From NCBI GenBank assembly GCA_016180945.1, contig JACPAG010000003.1, positions 39,312-103,311 on the forward strand: a DNA stretch of 64,000 nt. The letters are read 5' to 3'. Below the pieces are notes generated by a model, which saw nothing but the letters and a program-made list of their open reading frames with translations, had not been told where the DNA came from and did not search any database. This document shows, piece after piece, positions 145 through 54,272 of the stretch; position 1 is the stretch's first letter; each line of letters begins with the position of its first letter. The DNA comes from Candidatus Aenigmatarchaeota archaeon (GTDB taxonomy: Archaea > Aenigmatarchaeota > Aenigmatarchaeia > GW2011-AR5). A program made the translations under genes and the position numbers.

Positions 145-182
145 ATGGCAATCGACTTTTTGCCGGAGCAAAGGGGATAAAT
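145..182 (+). promoter_or_regulatory. Conserved leader motif: ATGGCAATCGAC, hairpin CTTTGC-CGGA-GCAAAG, then GGGGATAA, ending 2 nt before the rps9 ATG
   Basis: Exact motif is present. An A/T box (aataat) lies directly 5'. A degenerate second copy (ATGGGATACGAGAC) sits at about 113-126. Confidence 0.6.
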
Positions 183-617
183 ATGGCAGAAGAGCAGCAG
201 AAACAGAAAAAGAAAAAAATCATAATAGCCCTTGGAACCAGAAAGAAATCAATAGCCAGGGCTGTTTTGAGGGAAGGCTCCGGAAAGGTCAGGATAAACT
301 CCGTTCTTATTGACTTGGTCGAACCGCGTTATAAGCAGATGAGAATCAAGGAGGCCCTGCTTCTGGCCGGCGACGTTGCAAAAACTGTGGACATAAATGT
401 CAGCGTGTCCGGCGGCGGCGTGTGGGGCCAGGCTGACGCATCCAGGAATGCGATAGCCAATGCACTGGTATCGTGGAGAAAAGACGACAGCCTGAAGCGC
501 GCTTATCTGGAGTACGACCGTTCGCTGCTTATACCGGACGCGCGCCGCACCGAACCGCACAAGCCGTCCCGTTCAAGCGCAGGTCCTAGGCGAACGAAAC
601 AGCAAAGCAAGCGTTAA
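183..617 (+). CDS. rps9: 30S ribosomal protein S9 (uS9)
   Basis: Protein shows the S9 signature GGGVWGQADASRNAIANALV and a basic C-terminus. Confidence 0.9.
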   Translation: MAEEQQKQKKKKIIIALGTRKKSIARAVLREGSGKVRINSVLIDLVEPRYKQMRIKEALLLAGDVAKTVDINVSVSGGGVWGQADASRNAIANALVSWRKDDSLKRAYLEYDRSLLIPDARRTEPHKPSRSSAGPRRTKQQSKR

Positions 618-639
618 ATAATATTTTTACATAGGAAAT

Positions 640-852
640 ATGGAAAAGGTGATTAATACGATTATCCCAGTCAGGTGTTTATCGTGCGGCAAGCCCGTAG
701 GCGGCTTGTGGGAAAAGTATAAGGAGCGCGTCAGCAAGGGCCAGCAGCCGGGCAAAGCCCTGGACGACCTGGGATTGAAAAGGTACTGCTGCCGTGCCTT
801 GTTCATGACACACGTCGACGTTTTAAAGAACGTCGCCAGATACAGGATATGA
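640..852 (+). CDS. rpoN: DNA-directed RNA polymerase subunit N (Rpo10/RpoN)
   Basis: Contains IPVRCLSCGK...LGLKRYCCRALFMTHVDVL, the Rpb10 zinc-bundle motif. Confidence 0.85.
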   Translation: MEKVINTIIPVRCLSCGKPVGGLWEKYKERVSKGQQPGKALDDLGLKRYCCRALFMTHVDVLKNVARYRI

Positions 853-855
853 GAC

Positions 856-1557
856 ATGAACATAGAAAAATTCCTTCTTGACAATAACATAAGGATTACA
901 AAACGCCTTGACCAGCACCTTCTTCTTAAGAGCGAAATGCTTGAAAAAGAAGTGGCGTTAGCCGAGCTGAAGAAAAGCGACGTCGTGATTGAAATTGGCC
1001 CCGGCATCGGCAACCTGACAAAGCTTCTTGCAGAAAAATGCAGGGTTGTTGCAATAGAAAAAGACAGGCAATTTGCCGCCCTGCTGGAAAACTATAACGT
1101 CATTTACGGTAACGCATTGGACTTGATAAAAACCGTTAAGTTCAACAAGATTGTATCAAACATACCATACTCGATATCCCAGCCGCTCCTGCTAGAGCTG
1201 CTCAGACATAACTGGCAGAAAGCCGTTTTGATTGTCCAGAAAGAATTTGCAGAAAAACTCGTTAGCGGCAAGTTGGCCATTCTGCTAAAAGACTGCGGAG
1301 ACGTCACGATAGAGGCGTTTGTGCCGGGCGATAATTTTTATCCGCCAGCGGCGGATTCTGCGATAGTTGTCATTGACAAGACCGGGCCGTTCGACGAAAA
1401 TCTGTGGGCCTTCTTAAAAGTCGTATACAGGCGGAAAAACAGGAACGTGAGGAATGTTGTTAAAAAATATCCGGCAGAACTCGGAAAAAAGAAAATTCAT
1501 CAGCTCAGTAACGAAGAGATAAAAGCTTTGTATGAAATGAATAAAGTAATCCAGTGA
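856..1557 (+). CDS. rsmA: 16S rRNA (adenine1518/1519-N6) dimethyltransferase KsgA/Dim1
   Basis: Carries the SAM-binding motif VIEIGPGIGNLT and a C-terminal KsgA domain. Confidence 0.85.
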   Translation: MNIEKFLLDNNIRITKRLDQHLLLKSEMLEKEVALAELKKSDVVIEIGPGIGNLTKLLAEKCRVVAIEKDRQFAALLENYNVIYGNALDLIKTVKFNKIVSNIPYSISQPLLLELLRHNWQKAVLIVQKEFAEKLVSGKLAILLKDCGDVTIEAFVPGDNFYPPAADSAIVVIDKTGPFDENLWAFLKVVYRRKNRNVRNVVKKYPAELGKKKIHQLSNEEIKALYEMNKVIQ

Positions 1558-1561
1558 TACT

Positions 1562-2266
1562 ATGGCTACCCAAACCCATGAAAGGGCTGCAACCACCGAG
1601 GAAGCGAGAAGATACTTAGAATACGCATTAGATCCTTCGTTCACCAGGGAGATGGCGGCCATTTTTGGCAACGCCGAACCGGCTCCGGCAGAAATAGCAT
1701 TCTACGACGCAAAGCTTAGTGGTACTGGCGAGCTTGCAAATTATCTTAGGCCTGAAGAGGTCGCCGAACTATACAACGGGGACAGAGAATTTGTAATGTC
1801 TAGGATAAGGGAGGAGCGTGGCACAACAAAAACCCAGATGGCTCTCAGCCCTGACTTATTAAAAATGCCAGAGGCTCTTGTATATGCTGTTATAGACCAT
1901 GAAAAGTCTCATGGAGCCCAGCCAAAAGGCAAACTGGCGATGAAAGGCATTCATGCCTACACGCCTTTTGGCGTCTTGCCGCTGGGCGAAATGCTTGTAG
2001 AAGGCTGGGCAGAATATGGGCTTGAAAGAAAAGGAAGAAAACCACCTTCCCGTTATTTCGACGAAATATACGGCCACGGAAAAACAGCATACAGCCGGTT
2101 CAGGGATCTCGTCTACGAAGTCGAGGAGCAGTCGCCTGGCATAACAAGGCAGATAATGAGGGCAGCAAGGAGAGGCGGCCCAAACGCGGCAATAAGGCTT
2201 ATAGAAGGCATACCAAACATAGAGAATATAGTAACTAAATATGCCTGCAGCATGAGAAAGAACTAG
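1562..2266 (+). CDS. Hypothetical protein with an HEXXH motif (putative zinc-metallopeptidase-like)
   Basis: 234-aa ORF containing VIDHEKSHG. No other recognisable family. It sits between ksgA and a zinc-finger gene. Confidence 0.45.
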   Translation: MATQTHERAATTEEARRYLEYALDPSFTREMAAIFGNAEPAPAEIAFYDAKLSGTGELANYLRPEEVAELYNGDREFVMSRIREERGTTKTQMALSPDLLKMPEALVYAVIDHEKSHGAQPKGKLAMKGIHAYTPFGVLPLGEMLVEGWAEYGLERKGRKPPSRYFDEIYGHGKTAYSRFRDLVYEVEEQSPGITRQIMRAARRGGPNAAIRLIEGIPNIENIVTKYACSMRKN

Positions 2267-18351: not shown

Positions 18352-18507
18352 GCCAGTTTCTTTGAATCCAAGATTTTAATAGGTTTCGCAAGAGTTAACC
18401 TTATGCCGATCATAAATAAAATGGCTACAAGCAGGATTCTAAAGAATCCTGCTGTACAGAAGGTTCGTTTCAACGAACCTTCTTGTATCGACTCGCCGAG
18501 CGAGGGG

Positions 18508-19101
18508 ATGATTATTGCAAGAGGCGCCGAAGCTGTAATCAATCTTGAGAATAACCAAATAATCAAGGAACGCATTAGAAAAGGCTACAGGCTAACGCAA
18601 TTAGATGAAACATTGCGAAAAAAGAGAAACCGCAATGAAGCCTCACTGCTTAGAGAAGCCAGGCGCGCTGGAGTAGACGTTCCGCAGATTTTAGACGAGT
18701 CAGAATTCTCGATAAAAATGGAATTTATTGGCGGCGTAAAAGTCAAGGATGCCATGAACGAAAACAACGCCGAAGAACTGGCAGAAAAAATAGCCGCCTC
18801 CGTTGCAAAGCTCCATAACAAAGGCATAGTGCACGGCGACCTGACAACATCCAATATGATAATTAAGGGCAACAATATTTTCTTCATAGATTTCGGTCTC
18901 GGCTTTTTCTCGCAAAAGGCAGAGGATATGGCAACAGATTTATACCTGCTTCACGAAGCGCTGGAATCAACCCACTTCTCAGTAATGGAAAAAGCGTGGA
19001 AAACAATATTAAATGCCTACAAGGAAGGCTTCAGCGGCGCCGACAAAGTTATTAAAACATTAGCCGAGATAGAAAAGCGGGGAAGGTACAGGGAGAGATA
19101 G
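18508..19101 (+). CDS. bud32: KEOPS complex kinase Bud32
   Basis: MIIARGAEAVI start and catalytic HGDLTTSNMI. Start moved to Met36 of the ORF-track ORF, which is preceded by GAGGGG. Confidence 0.8.
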   Translation: MIIARGAEAVINLENNQIIKERIRKGYRLTQLDETLRKKRNRNEASLLREARRAGVDVPQILDESEFSIKMEFIGGVKVKDAMNENNAEELAEKIAASVAKLHNKGIVHGDLTTSNMIIKGNNIFFIDFGLGFFSQKAEDMATDLYLLHEALESTHFSVMEKAWKTILNAYKEGFSGADKVIKTLAEIEKRGRYRER

Positions 19102-19367: not shown

Positions 19368-19379
19368 TATTAATGGCTC

Positions 19380-19566
19380 GAATGTCTTGAGAAAGCAGCA
19401 GCTTTCTGAGACATCGGGCATCAAATGGTGATGAAGTATAGCCCGAATGCATTCAAAAAGCGGAGCTTTTTGGGGCATCGAGCTATGGAAGAGGTGTTAA
19501 ATATAGCCCGAATGCATTCAAAAAGCGGAGCTTTTTGTAGCACTCTAGCCATAGGAAGGGATATCA
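19380..19566 (+). promoter_or_regulatory. rps15 leader: tandem degenerate copies of the leader motif / gene 5' end
   Basis: TATAGCCCGAATGCATTCAAAAAGCGGAGCTTTTTG occurs twice. It resembles both the gene start ATGGCTAGAATGCATTCC and the consensus motif (hairpin AAAAAGC-GGA-GCTTTTT). Confidence 0.5.
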
Positions 19567-20016: not shown

Positions 20017-20107
20017 AGTATAATCAATAAGAAATAAGATGACACTCTGTTTCTTCTCAGACCAGACAAACACTTAAAAAGAATCCCGCCAAGTCTTAGA
20101 CATTATA

Positions 20108-20227
20108 GCATGGCAATCGGCTCATAACTTGAAGGAGCGTAGCGACCAAACATTTATATGGTCGACTAACGACTGGAAGGAGCTAAAATTATTATATGGC
20201 AATCGACTTGCCGGAGGCAAGGGGATA
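20108..20227 (+). promoter_or_regulatory. Three tandem copies of the leader motif upstream of the primase gene
   Basis: ATGGCAATCGGCTCATAACTTG..., TTTATATGGTCGACTAACGACTGGAAGGAGC, and a perfect final copy ATGGCAATCGAC-TTGCC-GGA-GGCAA-GGGGATA immediately before the ATG. Confidence 0.6.
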
Positions 20228-21595
20228 ATGAACCGCCAGCAGATTTTCGACTATTATTCGCACGACAAAATTTCTTCCATTCTTGTAAACAATTCGAAAG
20301 AGCGCGAAGTGGCAGGCGCTTTCTTCGACGGCACCTATGATTCCCGCCCTAACGCACTCCAGTTTGACAGCGACGTAACCCAGATGGTTAAAAAGGGCGT
20401 CGTCTCGTTCCACTATTCCGTCGAGCACTGGAAAAATCCGATGGCCATTCAGGAGAAAAATTACAATAAGCTTCGTGCCGGCTGGGACCTCTTGATAGAC
20501 ATAGACTCGAAACTGGGGCTGGAAGAATCGAAAGCTGCCGTGATGATTATACGGAATTTTTTGGAAAAGTATGGCATAAAAAATTTCGGCCTTAAGTTTT
20601 CCGGCCGCCGCGGCTTTCACGTATGCCTGCCGTGGATAATGTTTCCGAAAGAGATAAATTACAGCAAAGCCGAGGTTATGTATCCGGAAGTCCCGCGGAT
20701 TCTCTCCTCCTTTTTGAGGGACAAAATTTCCGGCGAACTCATGAAAGAGCTGCTGAAGAAAAAGAGCGCGAAAGAGCTGATAGCCACCTTGGAAGAGCCG
20801 CCCTCGTCCCTTTCACCTTATTTCTTCGTTGAAGTCGAAAAAAACTGGGGCAACCGGCATATGTTCCGCGCGCCGTTCAGCCTGAACGAGAAAACGTGGC
20901 TCGTTTCGCTGCCGATGAAATATTCAGACATCGTTGCTTTTTCCGCTGAAAAAGCCACGCCGCAGAACGCTTTGAATTCCGGCTTTGAAGATTTTTTTGT
21001 AGGCGAGGAAAACGAGGCCGAGGCATTTTTGATAGACGCCATGGACTGGCATTCTATGCAGCAGAAAGAAAAACCCAAAATAACAAAAAAAATTTATTAT
21101 GAAAACAAGATGCCCGCTGAGGCTTTTCCGCCATGCATCAAGACCGTTCTTGCTGGCCTGGCCGACGGCCGGAAAAGAAGCCTTTTTACGCTGATAAATT
21201 TCCTGCGCATGATGAACTGGCCCTGGCAGGAAGTGGAGCAAACGGTTTTTGAATGGAACGAAAAAAACAGGCCGCCGCTGCCGAGGAACATTATAATTTC
21301 CCAGTTAAGATGGTGCCAGATAAACCAACGTACGCCGGCAAACTGCCCGCCTGACGGCGAGATGTACTACGTCTCGACAGGTATTTGCAAACCGGACGAG
21401 ATATGCAAGGCAGGAACAGAAAAAATAGTCATAAAAAATCCCATCGTTTATCCGTTCAAGAAGATGAAAAAATTAAAAAAGGTCAAGCCTGTTTATCGCG
21501 GTTATTCCTGCATGCGATGCAAGAAAGAGTTCAAATCCATGGCGAGCCTTAATATGCACAAATCGAGAATGCACGGGATTTCAGATGCAGCGTAA
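20228..21595 (+). CDS. priS: DNA primase small subunit PriS fused to a PriL C-terminal-domain-like module and a C2H2 zinc finger
   Basis: PriS catalytic region (GWDLLIDIDS, FSGRRGFHV). Then FPPCIKTVLAGLADGRKRSLFTLINFLRMMNW, the PPC(M/I)...R...FL signature of the PriL CTD, with 5 Cys. Then CMRCKKEFKSMASLNMHKSRMH. Start set at Met34 of the ORF-track ORF, directly after the motif. Confidence 0.75.
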   Translation: MNRQQIFDYYSHDKISSILVNNSKEREVAGAFFDGTYDSRPNALQFDSDVTQMVKKGVVSFHYSVEHWKNPMAIQEKNYNKLRAGWDLLIDIDSKLGLEESKAAVMIIRNFLEKYGIKNFGLKFSGRRGFHVCLPWIMFPKEINYSKAEVMYPEVPRILSSFLRDKISGELMKELLKKKSAKELIATLEEPPSSLSPYFFVEVEKNWGNRHMFRAPFSLNEKTWLVSLPMKYSDIVAFSAEKATPQNALNSGFEDFFVGEENEAEAFLIDAMDWHSMQQKEKPKITKKIYYENKMPAEAFPPCIKTVLAGLADGRKRSLFTLINFLRMMNWPWQEVEQTVFEWNEKNRPPLPRNIIISQLRWCQINQRTPANCPPDGEMYYVSTGICKPDEICKAGTEKIVIKNPIVYPFKKMKKLKKVKPVYRGYSCMRCKKEFKSMASLNMHKSRMHGISDAA

Positions 21596-23035: not shown

Positions 23036-23108
23036 GGAAATATAAATACAAAATGGTTTTGACTTAAAAAGTAAAGGGAGAAGGAACGGAGCGACCTACT
23101 ATTGTAAA

Positions 23109-23138
23109 ATGGCTATCGACTTGCGGAGCAAGGGGATA
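23109..23138 (+). promoter_or_regulatory. Leader motif copy (ATGGCTATCGAC-CTTGC-GGA-GCAAG-GGGATA) in frame with rpl44e
   Basis: Motif is present. Its upstream ATG is in frame with the gene ATG, so the ORF track shows a false 10-aa extension. Confidence 0.6.
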
Positions 23139-23420
23139 ATGATTATACCAAAAATCCAGATGCGTTATTGCAAGTTCTGCAAAAAACACACAGAGCACAC
23201 GGTCGAAGAAGCGAAGAGACGGCCAAGAAAACAGAACAGCAAAAGCCAGCGCCGGTTTCTCCGCAAGTTAAAAGGTTACGGCTCGTTCCCTAAGGAAAAC
23301 CCGAAAGGAAGGGAAAAGCCGACCAGGAAGACGGATTTCCGCTATGTCTGCAAGGAGTGCGGAAAAAAGCATACATTAGGCACTGGCTTCAGGATAAAAA
23401 AGATAGAGTTCAAGAAGTGA
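23139..23420 (+). CDS. rpl44e: 50S ribosomal protein L44e (eL42)
   Basis: Two CxxC pairs (RYCKFCKKHTEH...CKECGKKH) and a basic tail. Confidence 0.85.
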   Translation: MIIPKIQMRYCKFCKKHTEHTVEEAKRRPRKQNSKSQRRFLRKLKGYGSFPKENPKGREKPTRKTDFRYVCKECGKKHTLGTGFRIKKIEFKK

Positions 23421-23446
23421 ACGACTGAAGGGATGATAAAAATAAT

Positions 23447-23490
23447 ATGGCATACGACTATGTCGCTCATAGCGACAGAGGGGTATTATT
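23447..23490 (+). promoter_or_regulatory. Leader motif copy (ATGGCATACGAC-TGTCGCT-CAT-AGCGACA-GAGGGGTATT)
   Basis: Nearly identical to the copy at 44826-44893. Confidence 0.6.
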
Positions 23491-24099
23491 ATGAATTCCG
23501 CTCTTTTTGTGCTGCTGTTTTCTGTTCTCGTCTTATTCGTCATGAACATCCCTTATAAGTTCCTCATAAACCAGAACGAGGCCAGGGCAATAAAAGCCCG
23601 TGTCAAAGAGCTGCAGGAAAAGAGCAAATACGTGAGAAGGCAGGGAAACCAGAAAATGGCGTCGCAGATTATGGGCGACTCCTTCCGCGAAAGCAGCAAG
23701 CTGACAAAGATGTCCCTGAAGCCCATGCTGCTCTCCCTTGTTATCGTTTTTATTGCGCTGCCTTTGTTAAGCAACGCGTATAGCGACCATGTAGTGGAGC
23801 TGAAAGACAACAAATCCAATATAACAATCAATGGCAATACCTACGACATCAGCGTAGCCGATAAAGTCATAACCATCGGAAATGTAACATGCGAATCGCC
23901 ATGCATGAAGAAAAACATCGGCGGCGGTTTATGGAACGTGAATGTCAACAGCAACAAAGTAGAATTTGCACGCATCGTCGCCCTGCTGCCTGTTTCCCTG
24001 CCGGTATTCGCCGACGATGCCGGCTGGCTGGGATGGTACCTTATAATCTCCATTCCCGTCATGATTCTCCAGAGGAAGCTGATGAAAATACACGTTTGA
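23491..24099 (+). CDS. DUF106-family membrane protein (archaeal Oxa1/YidC-like insertase candidate)
   Basis: Three TM helices with a coiled-coil segment between TM1 and TM2, typical of DUF106. Confidence 0.45.
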   Translation: MNSALFVLLFSVLVLFVMNIPYKFLINQNEARAIKARVKELQEKSKYVRRQGNQKMASQIMGDSFRESSKLTKMSLKPMLLSLVIVFIALPLLSNAYSDHVVELKDNKSNITINGNTYDISVADKVITIGNVTCESPCMKKNIGGGLWNVNVNSNKVEFARIVALLPVSLPVFADDAGWLGWYLIISIPVMILQRKLMKIHV

Positions 24100-27443: not shown

Positions 27444-27518
27444 CAGGTCACAAAATAAATAATACAATCGAAGAACTTTGTTCTTCGATGCACCGAAGAA
27501 CCTCTGGTTCTTCTTGTG

Positions 27519-27583
27519 TGGCAATCGACTTGCGGAGAAAAGTACCAGTATAAAATGGCACTCGACACGCGGAGCGTGGGGAG
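27519..27583 (+). promoter_or_regulatory. Two tandem leader motif copies upstream of purC
   Basis: TGGCAATCGACTTGCGGAGAAAAG..., then ATGGCACTCGAC-CACGC-GGA-GCGTG-GGGAG, then ATG. Confidence 0.55.
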
Positions 27584-28534
27584 ATGGATGTTATGTTACG
27601 AAATCAGTTAAACAATACCCTTGCCGAGACAAGCTTTTCTTTCGGGAAATTGTACCGCGGCAAAGTAAGGGACAATTATACAATAAACGGCAGGAGAATA
27701 ATCATTTGCACCGACAGGCTGTCCGCTTTCGACAAGATTATATGTACCATCCCTTTCAAGGGGCAGGTTCTAAACCAGCTGGCTGCCTTCTGGTTCAACG
27801 AGACAAGGCGCATAGCCAAAAATCATCTCATAGAAATGCCAGATGCCAACGCTATCATTGCTAAAGAATGCAAGCCGATTCCAATAGAAATGATAGTCCG
27901 CAGATACATCACAGGCGTCACCAAAACGTCATTGTGGTTCAACTATTCCAAAGGCGAGAGAAAATTTTTCAGCGCAGTGCTTCCGAACAATCTGAAAAAA
28001 GACCAGAAACTGGGCGAGCCTATTATTACGCCGACGACAAAAATGGAAAAGCACGACAGGAATTTGTCAAGGAACGAGATAGAAAAATTCGTCCCGGTGG
28101 ACATATTCCGCCAGATGGAAGAAACATCCTTCAGGCTGTTTGAGTTCGGCTCAGGGCTCGCAGAAAGCCGCGGCCTGATACTCGTCGATACAAAATACGA
28201 GTTCGGCCTGTGCGACGGCGAATTAACGCTGATAGACGAGATGCATACGCCTGACTCGTCCCGTTTCTGGTTTGCGAACACTTATGAAAAATTATTTTCG
28301 CAGGGCCAGCCGCAGCGGGAACTGGACAAAGAATACGTGAGAAGATGGCTCGCTTCAAAGGGCTTTTTGGGCGAAGGTCCTGTTCCTGCAGTTCCGGAAG
28401 ACGTCAGGATAGAAGCGGCAAAAAGATACATAGAGGCTTTTGAAATCCTCACGGACAAAAAATTCGAGCCGGACACCAGAGATGCATCAAAACGGATTGA
28501 AAAAAATCTGATGAAAAAGGGTTATATAGAATAA
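27584..28534 (+). CDS. purC: SAICAR synthetase PurC
   Basis: LYRGKVRDNY, LILVDTKYEFG and HTPDSSRFW motifs. Confidence 0.85.
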   Translation: MDVMLRNQLNNTLAETSFSFGKLYRGKVRDNYTINGRRIIICTDRLSAFDKIICTIPFKGQVLNQLAAFWFNETRRIAKNHLIEMPDANAIIAKECKPIPIEMIVRRYITGVTKTSLWFNYSKGERKFFSAVLPNNLKKDQKLGEPIITPTTKMEKHDRNLSRNEIEKFVPVDIFRQMEETSFRLFEFGSGLAESRGLILVDTKYEFGLCDGELTLIDEMHTPDSSRFWFANTYEKLFSQGQPQRELDKEYVRRWLASKGFLGEGPVPAVPEDVRIEAAKRYIEAFEILTDKKFEPDTRDASKRIEKNLMKKGYIE

Positions 28535-28538
28535 TAAT

Positions 28539-28655
28539 CTGGCTATCGACTAGGAACAAACCGACGCAGAACAGACCGACGCAAGACAAATAGACGCACA
28601 GCAGTGCGTCAGTCTGGTTTGCGTCAAGTTGTCTTGTGTCTAGGTGTGTGGGATA
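28539..28655 (+). promoter_or_regulatory. Leader motif with a ~94-nt palindromic insert between the 5' box (CTGGCTATCGAC) and the 3' box (GTGGGATA)
   Basis: The insert contains the hairpin GACGCAC-AGCA-GTGCGTC and outer CAAACCGACG...CGTCAAGTTGTC arms, which are shared with the element at 61172-61220. Confidence 0.55.
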
Positions 28656-44235: not shown

Positions 44236-44327
44236 ATCTGGCGTATGTAAATATCTAAGTTATCTTTATTTGTGGTAATGTGTATAGTAATGCAGGAATC
44301 CAAAAACAGTGGTTATCAAGAAATAAT

Positions 44328-44359
44328 ATGGCAATCGACTTTTGCCGGAGCAAAAGGGG
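44328..44359 (+). promoter_or_regulatory. Leader motif copy (ATGGCAATCGAC-TTTTGC-CGGA-GCAAAA-GGGG) ending at the CBS gene ATG
   Basis: Exact motif. Confidence 0.6.
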
Positions 44360-44797
44360 ATGTTTGGCGGGATAATAAAAAATTACAAGCTGGCAGAAAT
44401 TGCGGAGAAATGCGACTCCATAAGCGCGAAAGCTACCGTTCTGGACTTCGTAAATCTCGCGCGGCAGAAAAACGCAGAGGTCATGCCTGTTGTTGATGAG
44501 GATGAAAGAGTAATCGGGATAGTAACGGAAAAAGACCTTCTCAAGCTGGTTAAGATAGAAGGACCGGCATCCAACTATCCTATTATAGAGAAAAGCCTGC
44601 CTAAAGAAGTGGTTAACAGGCCCATAACATCTATAATGACACAAAATCCTGTTCTGCTGAAAGAAACGTCATCTCTTGAAGACGCCATGAACCTGATCCT
44701 GAACCATGACTTCAGGCGAGTTATCGTAGTCGATTCGCAGAACCGCCTTGTCGGCAAGCTGAGGATTGCCGACATTATACATCAGCTTTCTAAGTGA
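44360..44797 (+). CDS. CBS-domain pair protein
   Basis: Two CBS motifs. Start set at the ATG following GGGG. Confidence 0.7.
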   Translation: MFGGIIKNYKLAEIAEKCDSISAKATVLDFVNLARQKNAEVMPVVDEDERVIGIVTEKDLLKLVKIEGPASNYPIIEKSLPKEVVNRPITSIMTQNPVLLKETSSLEDAMNLILNHDFRRVIVVDSQNRLVGKLRIADIIHQLSK

Positions 44798-44825
44798 GTA
44801 CAAAATGCAAATAAAAATAGATAAT

Positions 44826-44893
44826 ATGGCATACGACTATGGCGCTTATAGCGACAGAGGGGTATTTGGCGCTTATAGCGACAGAGGGGTATT
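44826..44893 (+). promoter_or_regulatory. Leader motif copy with an internally duplicated tail
   Basis: ATGGCATACGAC-TATGGCGCTTATAGCGACAGAGGGGTATT, then GGCGCTTATAGCGACAGAGGGGTATT repeated, then ATG. Confidence 0.6.
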
Positions 44894-46045
44894 ATGACAG
44901 ACCTGTTTCTTGGAATAGCAATCCTTTTGTTTTCTGCCAAATTATTAGGCGAACTTTTCGAGCGGCTTAACCTTTCTTCGCTGGTAGGGGAAATTTTTGC
45001 AGGCATAATAGTCGGCCCTGTTCTCGGGCTTGTAATGCCGTCAGAAGACTTGCGCCTGGTCACGAATTTCGGTATTCTGCTGCTGCTGTTTTTGATAGGG
45101 CTTTCTACAAAGTTTGACGAGGTGAAGAGCAACGTTTATGTCGGAAGCGCCCTTGCAATAGGCGGCTGCACCCTTGCGTTTCTGGGAGGCTTTTTAGTCG
45201 GCTATCTGGTTTTCAACAGCGTTCAGGTAGGCATAATACTCGGCGTTGCAGTCATATCAACAAGCACCGCCATAACGTTGCGTTCGCTCACTGACATAGG
45301 CGCCTTCCAGTCGAAGCCTTACAAGCTGGCACTGGCGATAGACATAGCAGACGAGGTCATAGCTATAATGGCGCTGGCTTTGCTGACAAGCTATTTCTCT
45401 TTTGGGGCTGTTGAGATATGGAAGGTTGTGACATTGTTCCTAGCAGTATTGGGCTTCTTCTTTTTCATCCTCACCGCCGGCTCAAAGATTTTAGGAAAGT
45501 TCCTGTCATTGTTCCAGACAATGCGCGACGAGCAGATCGTGCTTTCCATACCGCTTGTCATCCTTTTCTTTATAGCATTTGTCAGCGAGCATGTCGGTGT
45601 CGCCGCCGTAACAGGCGCGTTTCTTGCAGGAGTCGCAATAAACAAATCCCCCCTCGTCGAGCCTGTAATTGTGCCCAAAGTCAAGGCAATGTCTTACGGA
45701 TTTTTCGTCCCGATGTTTTTCGCCTATTCGGCCGTTCTTTTGGACGTGAAATCAGTCATAACGTTCTTCCCGGCCATACTAGCACTAATAGCAACCGTTT
45801 CTTTAGGAAAAGTTCTTGGGTGCGGATTTCTGGCCAAATATTTCGGTTATAACGGTTTTGACCAGAAACTCATAGGCATAGGCATGATACCGCACGGCGA
45901 ATATAGCATCATCATCGCCCAGCTGGCCCTGCTCGGCGGCTTCATAAAGCCGGAGCTGTACACAATCGTAATAGCGTTTGTTATCATAAGCATCGTCATT
46001 ACGCCCCTGCTGCTGAAACTGGTAAACGGCAGGAATAGGTTTTAA
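44894..46045 (+). CDS. Cation:proton antiporter (CPA/Kef/NapA-type)
   Basis: 383 aa with ~12 TM helices and the CPA motif GEIFAGIIVGP. Confidence 0.7.
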   Translation: MTDLFLGIAILLFSAKLLGELFERLNLSSLVGEIFAGIIVGPVLGLVMPSEDLRLVTNFGILLLLFLIGLSTKFDEVKSNVYVGSALAIGGCTLAFLGGFLVGYLVFNSVQVGIILGVAVISTSTAITLRSLTDIGAFQSKPYKLALAIDIADEVIAIMALALLTSYFSFGAVEIWKVVTLFLAVLGFFFFILTAGSKILGKFLSLFQTMRDEQIVLSIPLVILFFIAFVSEHVGVAAVTGAFLAGVAINKSPLVEPVIVPKVKAMSYGFFVPMFFAYSAVLLDVKSVITFFPAILALIATVSLGKVLGCGFLAKYFGYNGFDQKLIGIGMIPHGEYSIIIAQLALLGGFIKPELYTIVIAFVIISIVITPLLLKLVNGRNRF

Positions 46046-47757: not shown

Positions 47758-47857
47758 GAAAGCACCCAAAAACAGTCCGGAATGTTGAATCATACAGCAA
47801 ACACAAGTATTAAGCAAAAACCTTTAATATGTTACTTTTATTGAAAATAATCATTTT

Positions 47858-48135
47858 ACATATTTTCTTTTCTGCAGAAGACGTTTGTCTTCTGAGAAAT
47901 CCAAGAAAGCTTTTGCTTTCTTAGGATTTGACTGCAAGCAGAAACCACAAGGTTTCTGATGTCTCGAAAAGCTCTGCTTTTCGCAGACAAGCTACTTTCT
48001 CCCCTTTGCTTCGCAACTCGAAGAAAGCAGAGCTTTCTTGAGTCGCCAAAATGCTTCGCATTTTGCGCGAAGTCGAGAGCCATTTTATTCTTTTCCGCAA
48101 GCGCTTTTCTTTCTAAGAAAAGGGCTTAAAGGAGC
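47858..48135. repeat. Hairpin-rich intergenic element ending in a terminator-like hairpin with T tracts
   Basis: Contains CAGAAGAC-GTTT-GTCTTCTG, GAAGAAAGC-AGA-GCTTTCTT and (AAGAAAAGGGCTT). Confidence 0.5.
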
Positions 48136-48903
48136 TTAACCTATGTATCTTATATCTTCTTTCGGCTTTGGCATTTCCTGGAGTATTTTCTTGTGGATTT
48201 TATCCGTCTTCTTTATCCTTTCTTCCATCTCTTTTATGGTCTTTTCAAGCCTTGAAAGGTCAACCTTGATTCCGAGTATCTTTGCCAGAACCTGAAGAAC
48301 CTTATCCGCGGCTTTGGGGTCGGTTACAAGCGGCAGCCCTATGGTCTCGCCCATCAGGCACACGCCGTCTATGTTGTACAGCTTTCCGAGACCTAACAGC
48401 AGGCCGGATGCCCCTACTATAGTCCCGATGGAATGCTCCTTTCCGAAATCTATGCCGTATTTTTCGTAAATCTTCAGCAGCTTTTTGTCGTTTACAGAAC
48501 CTATGACCCGCGGCTCTTCAACAACCCGGCCTTCGGCAAAACCGCCAAGTGTTATTATGTCGCTTACGCCCAGCTTTTGTGCAAAAGCCAGTATTTTTTC
48601 GCAGATTTCGTAGTGCCCTTCCGGCGATATGCTTTGCGTGTCGCCCGTCAGGATTATTATGTCCCTGTTCTTGGATTTGCAGTAATAGAATTCGTTTTTC
48701 AGCACGTGCGAAACAGAGTCATCGTGTATAATAACCAGAGGCAGAAAATGCGGCGAGTACAGTTCTGCAAATTTCTTCATCTTCATCTCGCTTACAAGAT
48801 AGCCGGCTGCCACCCTTCCAACGTTTCCTATTCCCGGCAGTCCCTCTACAAGAATGGGCTTTCTGAGCTTGACCTTCTCGAGCTGCTTTATAATCGTCTC
48901 CAT
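48136..48903 (-). CDS. PAC2-family proteasome assembly chaperone
   Basis: VEGLPGIGNVGRVAAGYL N-terminal signature. Confidence 0.65.
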   Translation of the reverse strand: METIIKQLEKVKLRKPILVEGLPGIGNVGRVAAGYLVSEMKMKKFAELYSPHFLPLVIIHDDSVSHVLKNEFYYCKSKNRDIIILTGDTQSISPEGHYEICEKILAFAQKLGVSDIITLGGFAEGRVVEEPRVIGSVNDKKLLKIYEKYGIDFGKEHSIGTIVGASGLLLGLGKLYNIDGVCLMGETIGLPLVTDPKAADKVLQVLAKILGIKVDLSRLEKTIKEMEERIKKTDKIHKKILQEMPKPKEDIRYIG

Positions 48904-48935
48904 AATCCCCTAACCTTCGGTTAGTCGATAGCCAT
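48904..48935 (-). promoter_or_regulatory. Leader motif copy (ATGGCTATCGAC-CTAACC-GAA-GGTTAG-GGGATT) directly 5' of the PAC2 ATG
   Basis: Exact motif on the minus strand. Confidence 0.6.
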
Positions 48936-49010
48936 CTTATAGATGTTTGCTCCTTTCAGTCGTAAGTCTATCCCATATTATTTTAATTTATGAATTATCT
49001 ATATGTTCCG

Positions 49011-50418: not shown

Positions 50419-50585
50419 AACTTATCCCTATTATGGATAATTTTCTTTCTTTTCTCAGAAGACATTCGTCTTCTGGAAACTCCAGAAAGCTTTGCAAGCG
50501 GAGAATCAGAGATTCTCCGATGCATCAATGAGCTTTGCTGGCGTTTCTTTATCCCCTAACTTCGTTAGTCGATAGCCATATTACT
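50419..50585 (-). promoter_or_regulatory. Leader motif with a ~110-nt hairpin-rich insert between the boxes
   Basis: From the distal end toward the ATG (minus strand): ATGGCTATCGAC-CTAAC-GAAG-TTAG-GGGATAAAG, then hairpins (CAGAAGAC...GTCTTCTG, GGAGAATC...GATTCTCC, GAAAGCTTTGC...), then GGGATAAGTT-ATG. Confidence 0.55.
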
Positions 50586-50647: not shown

Positions 50648-50824
50648 TTACTTGTCCAGAACCTGCATAGCCTTCGTCTTTATGTCGGCCATCCCGCCGC
50701 GCGGTTCTGCTAATACTTTGCCGCATACAAGGCATTTGACGACTGTCGCGGCATGGCTGAACAGTATCTGCTCATTGCGGCATTTCACGCACTTGACCTT
50801 CAAAAACTTGCTTTCCGGCTCCAT
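50648..50824 (-). CDS. rps27e: 30S ribosomal protein S27e, 58 aa; not in the ORF track
   Basis: Translation is MEPESKFLKVKCVKCRNEQILFSHAATVVKCLVCGKVLAEPRGGMADIKTKAMQVLDK, a C4 zinc finger. Confidence 0.8.
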   Translation of the reverse strand: MEPESKFLKVKCVKCRNEQILFSHAATVVKCLVCGKVLAEPRGGMADIKTKAMQVLDK

Positions 50825-50864
50825 TATCCCCTTTGCTCCGCAAAGTCGATTGCCATATTAATAA
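50825..50864 (-). promoter_or_regulatory. Leader motif copy (TTAATATGGCAATCGAC-TTTGC-GGA-GCAAA-GGGGATA) 5' of rps27e
   Basis: Exact motif. The flanking GAGCGTAGCGACCAAACATT is also found upstream of priS at ~20135. Confidence 0.6.
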
Positions 50865-50991
50865 TGTTTGGTCGCTACGCTCCAATCGGAATAATTGGAT
50901 AGAAGGTTTAAATAAGTAAATAAATATCTTCCTGTCGTACTTCAAGACCCCTTAAATAATTTGCGCCTAATAGAATTCTCGTTGAGGTGGA

Positions 50992-51309: not shown

Positions 51310-51316
51310 GCAAAAT

Positions 51317-51571: not shown

Positions 51572-51572
51572 A

Positions 51573-51791: not shown

Positions 51792-51794
51792 GCT

Positions 51795-51945
51795 CCTTTT
51801 TCTTTAGAAAAGAAAAAGTAGCTTGTCTGTGGAAAGCAAGAGCTTTCCAAGATCTCAGAAACCAGAAGGTTTCTGCAGACAGTCAAAAAGAAAATAATAA
51901 TTTATATAATATGGCTATCGACTCTGCGAAGCAGAGGGGATGTAT
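51795..51945 (+). promoter_or_regulatory. Hairpin-rich element followed by a leader motif copy (ATGGCTATCGAC-CTCTGC-GAA-GCAGAG-GGGATGTAT) before rpl24e
   Basis: Nested hairpins GTCTG-TGGAAAGC-AAGA-GCTTTCCA...CAGAAACC-AGAA-GGTTTCTG-CAGAC, then TTTATATAAT plus the motif. Confidence 0.55.
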
Positions 51946-52104
51946 ATGGCTAAGTGTTCATTTTGCAGTTCATCGATAGAAGCAGGCACTGGAAAAACGA
52001 TTATCCAGAAAACCGGCAAGATAAGCTACTTCTGCTCCAAAAAATGCGAAAAAAACCTGTTCAAGCTGGGCCGTGACCCGAGAAAATTCAAATGGGCTCA
52101 ATAA
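51946..52104 (+). CDS. rpl24e: 50S ribosomal protein L24e, 52 aa; not in the ORF track
   Basis: Translation is MAKCSFCSSSIEAGTGKTIIQKTGKISYFCSKKCEKNLFKLGRDPRKFKWAQ. Confidence 0.8.
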   Translation: MAKCSFCSSSIEAGTGKTIIQKTGKISYFCSKKCEKNLFKLGRDPRKFKWAQ

Positions 52105-52295
52105 TGTCCGAATTTATAAGAGATATTAGAAGGAATTTTTCTCACGACTTTAGTGAAAGGCCCGTTTCGGCAATTGGCGAAGCTTGCCTTGTATTTTCTC
52201 TTCCTCTGTACCTCATGACAGGCAACACCTATGCCGGTGGTGCGGCAGCCATATCCAGTATAATAACAGCTACAGGTTATGTACTTGGCCGCTAG
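52105..52295 (+). CDS. Possible small membrane protein
   Basis: ORF track 52092-52295. An internal Met follows the rpl24e stop. One hydrophobic segment. Confidence 0.25.
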
Positions 52296-52296
52296 T

Positions 52297-52540
52297 TAGA
52301 TAACTCCTTTTATAGTGAAACCAGAAAAGAATCGGTATATTAATTTCTGGTTTTACATACACACAAAGAAGCATAGCTTCTTCTCCAAGAGGCCAAAGGT
52401 CTCTGGAGACTCAGGAAAGCTTTGCAAGCGGAGAATCTGGGATTCTCCGATGCACCAATGAGCTTTGCTCATTGCTTGCTTTCCTCGAGTTGGTGCGCCA
52501 GAAAACTTTGTTTTCTGCGTGTAGTCAGCAAGGATGTAAT
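52297..52540 (+). repeat. R2 composite palindromic repeat, direct copy with an extra ~50-nt module
   Basis: Near-identical to the reverse complement of 40690-40865. The extra module GAAAGCTTTGCAAGCGGAGAATCTGGGATTCTCCGATGCACCAATGAGCTTTGCT also occurs at 50470-50530. Confidence 0.7.
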
Positions 52541-52594
52541 ATGCTGTTTGTTTCCTTGCATGACTATAAATTTCCAGACGATTATATATTTAAC

Positions 52595-53056
52595 ATGAAA
52601 GTCAGGGACGTGATGACCAGAGATTTGATAACCATCAGGAATGACAATAAAGTTAAGCACGCCCTTGAGGCGCTTGCAAAGAATAAAATATCCTGCTGCC
52701 CTGTTCTGGACAGGAAAAACAATTTTCTTGGAATAATAACCCAGACGGATATAATAAAAATAATAGACGTCCATTCTAAAATTCACAAGGCAAAAGAGAT
52801 GTTTCCGCTGATCGCCGCCGCCGCCAGGTCGAAAAATTATGACAAGCTCAGGAGGGAGATAAAATCAGTCATGGACATGGAAGTAAGCAATTTCATGAAC
52901 AGGGAGCCTGTGACCATCGCTGCCCACGAAGACCTTTATACGGCAGCCAAGGTTATGAACAAGCACGGCATAAACCACCTTCCCGTTGTCAATAAGAACA
53001 AGCTCGTGGGAATTCTCAGCAAAAGCGACCTGATAAAGACATTGGAAAAATTATAG
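52595..53056 (+). CDS. CBS-domain pair protein
   Basis: Two CBS motifs. Start at Met42 of the ORF-track ORF. Confidence 0.7.
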   Translation: MKVRDVMTRDLITIRNDNKVKHALEALAKNKISCCPVLDRKNNFLGIITQTDIIKIIDVHSKIHKAKEMFPLIAAAARSKNYDKLRREIKSVMDMEVSNFMNREPVTIAAHEDLYTAAKVMNKHGINHLPVVNKNKLVGILSKSDLIKTLEKL

Positions 53057-53287
53057 ATGATGTCAATGCCTATTCCACCGCCCCATCCGCCAAATCACAA
53101 GCCGCCACATTTAAGAGAAAGAACATCTTTAGTAAAGAGTTTAATTATCTCAACAGTAATAGCAATTATTTTTTATTTTATTATGGACTATCTTAATGTT
53201 CCGTTGGGAGGGTCTGTCCCGGCTTCTGTTGCACTATGGACAGGATTGGTGGCTATTTTAGCCAAACTATTGGGGAAACATCCTTAG
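53057..53287 (+). CDS. Small membrane protein (Pro/His-rich N-terminus, 2 TM helices)
   Basis: 76-aa ORF coupled to the CBS gene. Confidence 0.35.
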   Translation: MMSMPIPPPHPPNHKPPHLRERTSLVKSLIISTVIAIIFYFIMDYLNVPLGGSVPASVALWTGLVAILAKLLGKHP

Positions 53288-53295
53288 TTATCTTT

Positions 53296-54000
53296 TCAGC
53301 TTCCGAACCTTCTTTTCCTGCTTTCAAACTCTTCTATAGCTTCCTGGAAGTCCTTTTTTGTCAGTTCCGGCCATTTTCTGTCGGTGAATATCAATTCTGC
53401 ATACGCCGACTGGAAAGGCAGAAAATTCGATAGCCTTTTTTCGCCGCCTGTCCGGAATATCATGTCCGGCTCCGGCTGCCCGTTAGTGTAAAGGTGCTCT
53501 TTCAGTATTTTTTCGTTAAGCTGGGCAGGGCTTATTACGCCTTTCAGTCCTTTTTCCAGTATTTTTTTTGTCGCGTCTACAAGCTCTTGCTGCCCGCCAT
53601 AAGCGACGGCTATGTTAAGCGCGTATTTTTTGTATTTTTTCGTCCGCTCCTCAACGAGCTTCATCTTTTTCTGCAGATGTTCCGGCAAAACTGACGTCCT
53701 TCCGATGAACCGGACGCGCACACGGAATTTGTGAACGACGTGGTTTGCGTTTTTCAGTATACTCTCGGTTTCCATGCCAAGATATTTCAGGATAAAGCTC
53801 AGCTCTTTTTTAGGCCTGGTTGAGATATTTTCAAGCGACAGCACGTATGCCGTTATATATTTTATGCCCGCTTCGCAGGCCCACTGCAAAACTTGCCGCG
53901 ACTTTATGAGGCCGACCTTATGGCCTTCCCAGGGACGTTTCATAATCTGCCGGGCAAATCTCCTGTTGCCGTCAAGAATAACGCCTATATGCCTTATCAT
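53296..54000 (-). CDS. uppS: Undecaprenyl-diphosphate synthase family (cis-prenyltransferase UppS)
   Basis: HIGVILDGNRRFA... Confidence 0.8.
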   Translation of the reverse strand: MIRHIGVILDGNRRFARQIMKRPWEGHKVGLIKSRQVLQWACEAGIKYITAYVLSLENISTRPKKELSFILKYLGMETESILKNANHVVHKFRVRVRFIGRTSVLPEHLQKKMKLVEERTKKYKKYALNIAVAYGGQQELVDATKKILEKGLKGVISPAQLNEKILKEHLYTNGQPEPDMIFRTGGEKRLSNFLPFQSAYAELIFTDRKWPELTKKDFQEAIEEFESRKRRFGS

Positions 54001-54095
54001 CGCAATACCACTATTGTTATTAAACGTATAGATTTTAAATCTAACGATAAACCTATATGTTATCGGTATAAAAATAGATTTAGGACAATGTTAGA

Positions 54096-54272
54096 AATGA
54101 TGTGGCAATCGCCTCATCAAAAATTACAAACGAATGCCTATGGCATTCGTTGCATCGAAGACCAAAGGTCTTCAGTGCATCAAAAGACTTTGCGAAGTCT
54201 TCGAAGATGCTCTTGCATCTTCGAGATTCCGAAGGAACTTTGTTCCTTCGAGAACAGAGGGGAGAGGGGATT
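54096..54272 (+). promoter_or_regulatory. Leader motif (variant 5' box ATGGCAATCGCC) with a ~150-nt insert of four hairpins before GAGGGGAGAGGGGATT-ATG
   Basis: Hairpins CGAAGACC-AAA-GGTCTTC, AAAGACTT-TGCG-AAGTCTT, CGAAGATGC-TCT-TGCATCTTCG and CGAAGG-AACTTT-GTTCCTTCG. The upstream ATG is in frame, so the ORF track shows a false 57-aa extension. Confidence 0.55.

Follow-up and report, generated by a model that had tools for sequence, protein, structure and literature searches.

An uncultivated archaeon of the Aenigmarchaeota (DPANN) carries a gene-start cassette of ~45 bases that has been copied before about 16 unrelated genes. The copies lie in a stretch of 64,000 nucleotides (nt) of its genome (assembly GCA_016180945.1, contig JACPAG010000003.1, positions 39,312 to 103,311), the whole of which is referred to here as the window. 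Reading every match with its flanks gives one order of parts: an A/T box (ATAAW), the 12-mer ATGGCWATCGAC, which contributes an upstream AUG of its own and four fixed codons, a stem-loop formed by a perfect palindrome of 4-7 bp with a C-GRA-G loop as its cap, GGGGAT, and the ATG of the gene, which in most copies follows the end of GGGGAT by 0-4 nt. The cassette is real and undescribed; no equivalent element was found in the literature searched. Its existence, the covariation of its stem, its restriction to one clade, its insertion relative to ancestral start codons and the stop-start geometry that surrounds it are established. We infer that it is transcribed, folds as RNA and acts in translational coupling. 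The reading that we prefer, with a probability of about 0.4, is that of a transcribed leader or intercistronic cassette which would couple translation of the gene to a short leader open reading frame (ORF) that runs through the hairpin.

Copies in the window

The 12-mer occurs eight times exactly in the 64 kb, where ~0.015 exact occurrences are expected from length alone, and five more times with one mismatch. At up to two mismatches there are 20 matches (8.1 +/- 3.0 in shuffles), and the pattern TCGAC-N8-24-GGGGW has 13 matches versus 2.0 expected. A covariance model, R1, built from nine distinct copies, detects ten sites at E<1e-4 (145, 18486, 20196, 23109, 27555, 44328, 48924(-), 50568(-), 50845(-) and 51911) and six weaker or variant, degenerate ones (48072(-), 27518, 20110, 23447, 44826 and 28539), all 16 of them aimed at the downstream gene. 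Immediately 5' of the 12-mer the bases are A-T-A-A-W (T occupies -4 in 26 of 27 copies), so that the invariant core is a 17-mer. The cassette start codon is ATG in 25 of the 27 copies with at most one mismatch, and GTG or CTG in the rest. Searched against Rfam at the gathering threshold, the whole window yielded one tRNA and nothing else; at E<=1, the segments 18300-28700 and 47500-54400 yielded two chance-level matches, both far under the gathering score.

The sites are as follows, with genes named from the Pfam domains of the window proteins, sites matched by the covariance model marked R1, and family 2, a related form of the element, described further below.

114..125, plus strand: degenerate upstream unit ATGGGATACGAG, a family-2-like 12-mer with its own A/T box, 31 nt 5' of the main rps9 12-mer
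139..185, plus strand: canonical rps9 cassette (R1, Pfam S9), reading AATAAT, ATGGCAATCGAC, TTTTTGCC-GGA-GCAAA, GGGGAT, AAAT, ATG(183)
18403..18511, plus strand: RIO/Bud32 kinase leader (R1), inserted within the 5' end of the ancestral ORF, in the order old leaderless start ATGCCGATCATA, AATAAA-ATGGCTA, two hairpins of 10-11 bp, ATCGAC-TCGC-CGA-GCGA-GGGG, new ATG at 18508
19368..19566, plus strand: rps15 leader in which the gene's own start, AT[GA]GC[CT]CGAATGCAT, recurs in three extra sense copies
20101..20230, plus strand: priS leader (R1) of three tandem units, ATGGCAATCGGC at 20110, ATGGTCGAC at 20158 and, at 20196, the canonical TTGCC-GGA-GGCAA-GGGGATA-ATG(20228); the ancestral priS TATA, CTTAAAAAG, lies 29 nt upstream of unit 1
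23103..23141, plus strand: canonical rpl44e cassette (R1), TTGC-GGA-GCAA, its ATG in frame with the gene ATG at 23139
23441..23493, plus strand: variant EMC3/DUF106 cassette (R1), ATGGCATACGAC, TGTCGCT-CAT-AGCGACA, GGGGTAT, ATG(23491), beginning 26 nt past the rpl44e stop
27512..27586, plus strand: purC leader (R1), a decayed unit GTGGCAATCGAC (27518) followed by ATGGCACTCGAC-ACGC-GGA-GCGT-GGGGAG-ATG(27584)
28535..28646, plus strand: purB leader (R1), CTGGCTATCGAC located 4 nt past the purC stop, with CTG for ATG, no GGGGAT and, instead of the mini-hairpin, a composite GACGCA/TGCGTC hairpin of ~90 nt
44322..44362, plus strand: canonical CBS-gene cassette (R1), TTTTGC-CGGA-GCAAAA, GGGG-ATG at 44360
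44820..44896, plus strand: variant Na+/H+ exchanger cassette (R1) with a 27-nt internal tandem duplication
47818..48090, minus strand: orphan copy (R1), ATGGCTCTCGAC at 48083-48072
48901..48985, minus strand: PAC2 leader (R1), degenerate ATGGGATAGAC, then GGAGCAAACATCTATAAG, then canonical ATGGCTATCGAC-TAACC-GAA-GGTTA-GGGGATT-ATG(48903)
50545..50585, minus strand: canonical cassette (R1), TAAC-GAA-GTTA, ~130 nt 5' of the start of the tRNA-binding-domain gene and after a T-rich terminator-like hairpin 3' of rps27e
50822..50862, minus strand: canonical rps27e cassette (R1), TTTGC-GGA-GCAAA-GGGGATA-ATG; the ancestral rps27e TATA, TATTTAAA, lies 50 nt upstream and is kept in relatives
51905..51948, plus strand: canonical rpl24e cassette (R1), TCTGC-GAA-GCAGA-GGGGATGTAT-ATG at 51946
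54096..54278, plus strand: prepilin-peptidase leader, a degenerate GTGGCAATCGCC, five unrelated hairpins of 7-10 bp, GGGGAGAGGGGATT and ATG(54276)

Most of this agrees with a preliminary description of the window made from the sequence alone. The gene names given there are confirmed by Pfam (S9, primase small subunit, L44e, EMC3/DUF106, SAICAR synthase, adenylosuccinate lyase, CBS, Na/H exchanger, tRNA_bind, S27e, L24e, PAC2, A24 peptidase and S15); the module layout and all eight stems listed there are directly read in the sequence, and tandem degenerate copies are frequent, as it said. The description overlooked two sites, those of the RIO/Bud32 kinase and the orphan at 48072(-), and its statement that the module immediately precedes the gene is wrong for four of its 14 genes. 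Corrections concern the tRNA-binding, purB, prepilin-peptidase (where GTGGCAATCGCC lies 170 nt and five hairpins 5' of the real ATG) and rps15 genes. The rps15 leader, taken there for a degenerate module, is a different construct of own-start repeats and hairpins, stylistically related to the 12-mer cassette. Each extra start copy covers the first 15 nt of the gene; a hairpin core (in two cases with a GGA loop) comes after it, and then an inverted start copy, the last of which could base-pair with the true start. These repeats are absent from the close relative L130 (contigs of relatives are cited by such numbers), whose rps15 has ATA as first codon. Counting hairpin leaders with cassettes, five of the seven ribosomal-protein transcription units in the window carry one or the other. 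L21e-L15e and L10e have no cassette.

The ~230-250 nt downstream of the orphan copy hold 6-7 unrelated perfect hairpins of 8-13 bp and GGGGAG, with no convincing ORF; a 75-aa ORF found there has no Pfam match. The region 47818-48050(-) may be a hairpin-array RNA or a decaying leader. Directly 5' of the purC cassette, at 27467-27513, alternating and overlapping GAAGAAC/GTTCTTC arms allow three mutually exclusive hairpins, an attenuator-like arrangement. The PAC2 leader lies 3' of the stop of Nop10, which is apparently encoded at 48990-49160 (-) and uncalled in the ORF set; Nop10 is uncalled in L134 and L135 too, and its stop lies there just upstream of the PAC2 cassette.

Covariation of the stem

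Nine distinct hairpins of 13 nt have 98.1% of their stem cells paired (76.5% when shuffled, 30-61% with slid partners), and six distinct hairpins of 11 nt have 100% (81.8% and 17-70%, respectively). Three positions vary in each stem, and the changes are two-sided only (13 + 6 cells), with one-sided changes numbering zero. The result is at least 11 different perfect stems in 20 copies. The loop is GAA (8), GGA (6), CGA (2) or CGGA (1), closed by a C:G pair every time, and several copies include the exact heptamer GCGGAGC or GCGAAGC; the loop had been described as always GGA, GAA or CGGA, which is contradicted by CGA in the RIO copy and by CAT/TAT in the variant copies. In both DNA and RNA folding, an outer helix, WATC:GATW, lengthens the hairpin across a GA/GG internal loop, and the replacement of ATC...GAT by ATAC...GTAT in the variant copies 23447 and 44826 is one compensatory event in this outer helix. 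Within the stems, symmetric indels adjoin the loop.

The stem is under constraint to pair, and it is not a protein half-site, because its unconserved positions are always complementary. The preliminary description had drawn the same contrast between a structure and a half-site; the pairing on which it relied holds up, the RNA nature of the structure being the part that is not established. A K-turn or L7Ae site was considered and rejected, since the internal loop, read from the sequence, sets GA opposite GG and has no 3-nt bulge.

Host clade and distribution

The homologues of the primase and of PAC2 are named as Candidatus Aenigmarchaeota, the window PAC2 protein being matched on short Logan contigs only. 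With R1, copies were found in L130 (priS 89% identical) and L134 (GCA_053537215.1, PAC2 88%), a single interrupted copy in L135 (PAC2 86%), and none in L137 (PAC2 80%) or in L131 and L132 (priS 60-65%). The cassette is confined to the closest relatives. The 17-mer, ATAAT+ATGGCWATCGAC, and GGGGAT are unchanged across lineages with 12-25% protein divergence.

An exact-pattern scan of 185,579 GTDB species genomes, in which the source lineage is not represented, returned 15 single chance matches in bacteria. Of 109 loci from a metagenome scan, ~11 are true copies, and the remainder have neither hairpin nor A/T box. Eight contigs of Ga0213870 carry true copies, as do one contig of Ga0114945 and one from Hainich groundwater. 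These copies stand before genes other than those of the window: the genes for L4, for an A-type ATPase subunit-like protein and for membrane proteins, and the gene that follows L4, which probably encodes L23; another lies at the junction after a dihydroorotate-dehydrogenase-like gene. The system is therefore general within the clade. One candidate was discarded, L057 as a PAC2 orthologue with a compensatory change: its downstream gene encodes a 1015-aa protein with no BLASTX match to the window proteins.

Insertion relative to ancestral starts

In more distant relatives, the same genes have plain leaderless promoters or tight operon junctions. In L131 and L132, priS has a leaderless promoter with its ATG 23-30 nt after the TATA; in the window the old TATA is kept, the first 12-mer stands approximately at the old ATG position, and two more units follow. 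The RIO/Bud32 gene starts in L131 with ATGCCAATAATC-GCAAGAGGC (MPIIARGAEA), and in the window the same start is duplicated, with ATGCCGATCATA followed by 93 nt of cassette and hairpins and then by ATGATTATT-GCAAGAGGC, so that the old TATA and old ATG are intact and the cassette sits after codon 4. For rps27e, which is leaderless in L098 and L137, the cassette of the window, L134 and L135 lies between the ATG and an old TATA/spacer that is also conserved in L137. The PAC2 genes carry canonical cassettes with different stems in the window and L134, a cassette interrupted by a long hairpin in L135, a family-2 form in L137 and none in L098. Most copies stand between co-directional genes, at junctions that are tight in relatives (L3-L4-L23, Nop10-PAC2, L44e-EMC3 and S28e-L24e); in L132, L44e and EMC3 overlap or nearly abut their upstream neighbours, from which the cassette separates them in the window.

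Since the cassette is missing at the same genes in relatives, it is a young duplicative insertion with high turnover. The recent spread proposed from two almost identical copies is supported by the same comparison; these copies, 23441-23486 and 44820-44865, differ at 3 of 46 bases.

Family 2, found in L135, L137 and L021, has the order ATAAT-ATGGGATACGAC, arm, ~30 nt (..AACCAAA-TTAWAWTATAACATAG), complementary arm, GGGGTAT, ATG. Its arms, directly between GAC and GGGG, co-vary (ACAT/ATGT, TTGTC/GACAA and TTACC/GGTAA), and the architecture is that of the canonical form, with a large loop instead of GRA and with ATAC:GTAT rather than ATC:GAT as the outer helix. The spacing of the arms around a ~30-nt loop suits a single-stranded fold and not cruciform extrusion. 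Family 2 is an older sister form, and the degenerate window units at 114 and about 48970, like the ..GTAGCGACCAAAC-ATTATTAAT before several canonical copies, are its remnants.

Position relative to promoters

A TATA matrix was built from 16 normal promoters of this genome, in which the TATA (YTTWWAAAW) ends 19-23 nt before a leaderless ATG, and 34 cassette copies were scored. The A/T box of the cassette scores below 6 in most of the 34, and L026 has no A/T box. Strong TATA matches lie instead 29-38 nt 5' of the 12-mer in seven of nine cases, the peptidase and RIO copies agreeing, and from this position transcription is predicted to start 7-18 nt before the 12-mer. These scores and positions, and the location of most other copies between co-directional genes, favour transcription of the cassette. 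The ATG of the 12-mer was rejected as a general leaderless transcription start, because no TATA is found consistently 19-23 nt upstream of it. The TATA-like box lies upstream of the hairpin in the canonical form and in its loop in family 2, 19-21 nt from the ATG there (a leaderless geometry), and the place of the hairpin is fixed with respect to the 12-mer, GGGG and ATG but not to that box, which was weighed in favour of a function linked to the start codon.

Translation signals and a proposed model of coupling

Operon-internal genes of this genome use (G)GTGAT plus 3-4 nt as a Shine-Dalgarno sequence (SD). No cassette contains GGTGAT; in most of them GGGGAT (or GGGGAG, GGGGTAT) is separated from the ATG by 0-1 nt. 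With the operon-internal genes as the reference, both the sequence and the spacing of GGGGAT speak against a plain SD, and that reading was rejected; the preliminary description had called it SD-like. The ORF that opens at the cassette AUG (MAID...) stops within -4 to +2 nt of the gene start in 9 of the 18 copies with a defined start, against 3 of 36 in control frames, a difference that is only suggestive because the copies share descent and the statistic overstates their independence. Six different sequence solutions produce the abutting stops: one is GGA-TAA-TG, ATGA arises twice in unrelated contexts, and the others place TAA or TGA 1-2 nt ahead of the gene's ATG. A further three of the 18 are in-frame fusions with the gene. 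The peptide is not the conserved entity, as the preliminary description held, yet the stop position of the leader ORF tends to be, and the embedded ATG had been set aside too fast. Stop-start overlaps are known to mediate coupling by termination and reinitiation in archaea (PMC6728339).

The cassette was copied into the 5' ends of genes, between the old transcription start, or the stop of the prior gene, and the start codon, whereby leaderless or overlapping starts became leadered. In the model that we favour, it would be transcribed from the retained upstream promoters or within polycistronic RNA, and the palindrome with its flanks (AUC..GAU around the GA/GG internal loop) would form one extended stem-loop reaching the AUG of the gene. 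Ribosomes would initiate at the cassette AUG, in the unpaired 5' part, translate through the hairpin and terminate on or beside the gene AUG (UAAUG, AUGA, or a stop 1-2 nt earlier), so that translation of the gene would be coupled to a leader ORF of ~10 codons via termination-reinitiation. In favour of the model stand the orientation of all 16 sites and their tie to the start codon, the pairing constraint on stem, outer helix and family-2 arms, the strong promoters retained upstream, the operon junctions at which most copies sit, the stop positions of the leader ORF and the long hairpin inserts tolerated before essential genes.

Several observations besides the shared descent of the copies weigh against this model. 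Six of the 18 copies are off the coupling geometry, two stopping right after MAID and four overlapping the gene out of frame. There is no SD before the cassette AUG, and a ribosome start there is left unexplained. L021 and L072 have a separate ordinary SD and start codon 25-36 nt past the cassette. Transcripts from the TATA-like box in the family-2 loop would carry no hairpin. The remaining points concern the nucleic acid that folds. G.U pairs are absent from all 84 stem cells of 15 distinct aligned stems; in the predicted folds of 17 leaders, G.U pairs make up 6.4% on the sense and 5.7% on the antisense strand; and the fold z-scores are equal on both strands, with a mean difference of +0.5, slightly toward antisense. 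The C-GNA-G triloop is an extra-stable mini-hairpin as DNA and much weaker as RNA, for d(GCGNAGC) melts at 70-76 C, and the related GCGAAAGC mini-hairpin, when made as RNA, r(GCGAAAGC), at 39 C (PMC13037366). An advantage of sense-strand folding, seen in 16 of the 17 leaders (raw 3 kcal/mol), was rejected as evidence for RNA, as it equals the compositional offset in shuffles, and the count of G.T versus A.C mismatches in extended stems (23 vs 15) was too noisy. None of these comparisons separates the RNA from the DNA level.

Alternative readings

The readings that compete with translational coupling are not fully mutually exclusive. The one that survives best, though we hold it to be unlikely, is a core-promoter cassette with a DNA mini-hairpin, in which the A/T box would be the TATA, the 12-mer and palindrome the spacer, and transcription would start in the 3' arm or at GGGG to give a leader of 7-11 nt. 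The C-GRA-G hairpin would then form on the melted non-template strand, or as a cruciform, to aid or gate opening, and the 12-mer would be read by a basal or specific factor. The A/T box is 23-28 nt from GGGG, which equals a TATA-to-start spacer and compares with 19-23 nt from TATA to ATG in normal promoters; the A/T box of rpl24e aligns with the ancestral TATA of its L098 orthologue; and those of 50845, 20196, 48924 and 23109 are preceded by a segment of the ..ACCAAAC type, as is the TATA-like box of family 2. Two copies come after T-rich terminator-like hairpins with at most 21 nt to spare, and the downstream starts of L021 and L072 agree with this reading, as do stems that are all Watson-Crick without strand asymmetry and a GGGGAT that never changed to the SD of the genome. 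In loop and stem type the palindrome matches the N4 DNA mini-hairpin with its C:G closing pair (PMC4496689, PMC13037366). A promoter function is opposed by the low TATA scores and the missing box of L026, by the strong ancestral promoters kept upstream and by the shift of the TATA-like box between the two families around a hairpin that stays in place. Inserts of 35-170 nt, which would wreck the spacing of a promoter, have been retained 5' of priS, eIF2-alpha, PAC2, purB and the peptidase gene, and the GRA loop is on the coding strand, whereas N4 uses the template strand.

Improbable, and clearly behind the promoter reading, is a selfish or structural DNA repeat that has no specific function in expression, that is, a non-autonomous palindrome or folded-DNA site in the style of repetitive extragenic palindromic (REP) elements, miniature inverted-repeat transposable elements or attC sites. 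Such a repeat would survive at starts and junctions because it brings harmless start and stop signals, and its pairing would be kept by template-switch correction of quasi-palindromes. Template-switch correction could keep palindromes perfect without selection. Presence and absence vary among relatives with 80-88% PAC2 identity, the same hairpin subfamily stands before unrelated genes (e.g. TCTGC-GAA-GCAGA in the window, L021 and L121), and there are tandem arrays and collapsed remnants. Unrelated perfect hairpins, 7-13 bp long, also crowd the leaders, stretches of neighbouring gene sequence are repeated around hairpins (RIO start, rps15 start and L3 3' end), and gene order changes at cassette sites (CBS and tRNA-binding gene). 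The symmetric indels beside the loop and the lack of wobble pairs are in keeping with a repeat of this kind, and so is an attC-like build of conserved outer pair, unpaired spacer, variable stem and variable terminal loop. Against it, the invariance of the 17-mer and of GGGGAT indicates sequence-specific selection, copies are always oriented with their gene, the GRA loop is conserved together with its C:G closing pair, and the stop-start geometry seems non-random. No transposase or integrase is found among the 50 window proteins scanned with Pfam, copy-specific target-site duplications are absent (pairs of A/T boxes were considered as such and rejected, since left and right flanks mismatch copy by copy), and there are no GTAG or RYYYAAC/GTTRRRY signatures.

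A further, folded-DNA reading, which we rate as improbable, is one in which the palindrome would act as folded single-stranded DNA in a cellular archaeal chromosome. In an N4-like version, a GRA mini-hairpin on the non-template strand would pre-melt or gate the promoters of about a fifth of the genes; in an attC-like version, a folded recombination site would move promoter-bearing gene cassettes, such as those of the CBS and tRNA-binding genes.

A single-regulon operator, in which a transcription factor would bind the 17-mer with or without GGGGAT to co-regulate growth genes, the palindrome being incidental, is very unlikely: the non-palindromic 17-mer is invariant and translation and growth genes are enriched (including RIO kinase, priS, pur genes and an ATPase subunit, with eIF2-alpha and PAC2 in relatives), but it leaves unexplained the constant complementarity of unconserved stem positions, the tie to the start codon and the inclusion of membrane transporters, the CBS protein and the peptidase, and the 12-mer is split by 70 nt of hairpins in the RIO copy.

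Other hairpins, repeats and gene order

Self-folding hairpins, 35-170 nt long and located at the mini-hairpin apex or beside it, are tolerated 5' of essential genes. A second hairpin family of 35-90 nt has GAC(G/A)CA...TG(C/T)GTC segments and AACAAAC...GTTGTT outer arms, and it is inserted at the apex of mini-hairpins of L130 priS, L098 eIF2-alpha, L134 rps27e, L135 PAC2, L072 and window purB. Its positions are 28550-28640 and 61165-61215 in the window, 944-980 in L130, 1040-1110 in L072, 360-430 in L134 and 9950-9990 in L135; in L098 it is found 5' of eIF2-alpha and near rpl24e, and in L132 5' of 11493. Because it is also present in the distant relative L132, this family is older or more mobile than the cassette. 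At L028 880-1010, a hairpin-containing insert of ~58 nt just before the L4 cassette has on each side a copy of the final ~22 nt, GGAGAGTAAACAAGG.GTGT.A, of the gene upstream, which is probably L3.

The CBS gene of the window lies between TrkH and the Na/H exchanger (42844-46045), with cassettes flanking it, and the CBS-exchanger pair is shared by L134; its neighbour in L135 and L137 is the prenyltransferase gene. Since its neighbours differ in L135 and L137, the CBS gene has moved, with cassettes at both junctions. The tRNA-binding gene is located between rps27e and eIF2-alpha in the window and L134 only.

Four copies of another element, ~75-100 nt long (11573-11680, 26955-27020, 30700-30800 and 46055-46150), consist of GATACAAGCGATACCACCAGTCTCGGACTGGTGGTTCGTGGTGTAAAAAACTTTGTCG.TAATAT.AAATGATGC and a second hairpin. 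Every copy is just past the 3' end of a gene, and none has an Rfam match at the gathering threshold; the element may represent a small RNA, a terminator module or a further repeat. A ~55-nt repeat, CAG[AG]AAGCTTTGCAAGCGGAGAATC...GATTCTCCGATGCA.CAATGAGCT, occurs twice on the plus strand (50480-50534 and 52420-52471), one copy lying within the leader of the tRNA-binding gene, antisense to that gene. Symmetric T-rich hairpins, AAGCC-TTTTCTTT..AAAGAAAAG-GCTT, follow genes at 33815-33952, 48084-48135 and 50600-50640 and are likely bidirectional terminators, two of them directly 5' of a cassette. A tRNA gene with a ~56-nt intron is present at 42605-42731 (+), scored by Rfam at 43 bits and not called by ARAGORN.

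Relation to known systems

The closest parallel in distribution is provided by putative mobile promoters (PMPs; Matus-Garcia, Nijveen and van Passel 2012, PMC3488235), in which one short non-coding sequence likewise precedes many non-homologous genes, conservation begins a few nt before the start codon, and the sequence is lineage-restricted and appears to spread by duplication or non-autonomous mobility. The upstream homology that marks PMPs is present here, with 16 sites before unrelated genes. PMPs are 50-100 nt long at >=80% identity, whereas the cassette is an invariant 17 + 6 nt around a variable palindrome; its core is ~31-45 nt, and only the 23441/44820 pair and tandem flanks reach ~46-50 nt. 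Unlike PMPs, it is found in a DPANN host, many of its copies are intercistronic, and most are doubtful as promoters.

In its stop-start geometry the cassette resembles coupling systems of archaea and bacteria (Huber et al. 2019, PMC6728339), where the stop of a short upstream ORF forms part of UAAUG or AUGA, or lies 1-2 nt ahead of the main start, and it shares with hairpin-containing leader ORFs a hairpin within the leader ORF and beside the main start. The known cases are real gene pairs or single regulatory leaders, in contrast to one portable cassette on many genes, and the cassette differs further in having no SD before the leader AUG and in the third of copies that misfit.

No N4-type polymerase is, to our knowledge, known in archaea, and no N4-like virion RNA polymerase was found among the window proteins scanned. 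Phage N4 promoters have 5-7 bp hairpins with a GGA/GAA loop and free stem positions on the template strand (PMC4496689). The promoter hairpins of the N4 virion RNA polymerase and the d(GCGNAGC) mini-hairpins (PMC4496689, PMC13037366) have in common with the cassette a stem of 5-7 bp, a GRA triloop, C:G closing and a variable stem, together with conserved flanking bases beside a transcription or translation start. They differ in the template-strand loop, a phage single-subunit polymerase and the use of host single-stranded DNA-binding protein and gyrase; the GRA loop of the cassette is on the coding strand in every copy, and the genes are cellular.

REP sequences and bacterial interspersed mosaic elements (BIMEs, REPINs) and the attC sites of integrons are also multi-copy extragenic palindromes in which structure is kept over sequence and gene order is rearranged. 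REP/BIME elements have a GTAG head, a palindrome conserved within the family, a location mostly at 3' ends and a REP-associated tyrosine transposase (RAYT), whereas the cassette lies 5' of genes, is oriented, has stems that vary and lacks GTAG; no such Y1 transposase is present among the scanned window proteins. Integron attC sites have RYYYAAC/GTTRRRY cores, extrahelical bases and an intI gene close by, where the cassette has ATCGAC/GGGGAT flanks, and no integron integrase was seen in the window.

Significance

DPANN archaea are, as far as we know, uncultivated, and the control of their gene expression is almost unknown. In this narrow clade, a portable cassette has rewritten the 5' ends of housekeeping genes, including those for ribosomal proteins, primase, a kinase, purine enzymes and transporters. 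The relatives provide a natural series in which the cassette is absent, present as family 2, canonical, or interrupted by a long hairpin, and this series makes both the shift from leaderless to leadered starts and the perfection of the palindrome directly testable. If the cassette acts as DNA, an N4-type mini-hairpin would enter cellular promoters, and either of the folded-DNA versions, if true, would be the first for cellular transcription or gene shuffling in archaea. If it acts as RNA, it would be a mobile translation-coupling device and would define a candidate growth-related post-transcriptional regulon.

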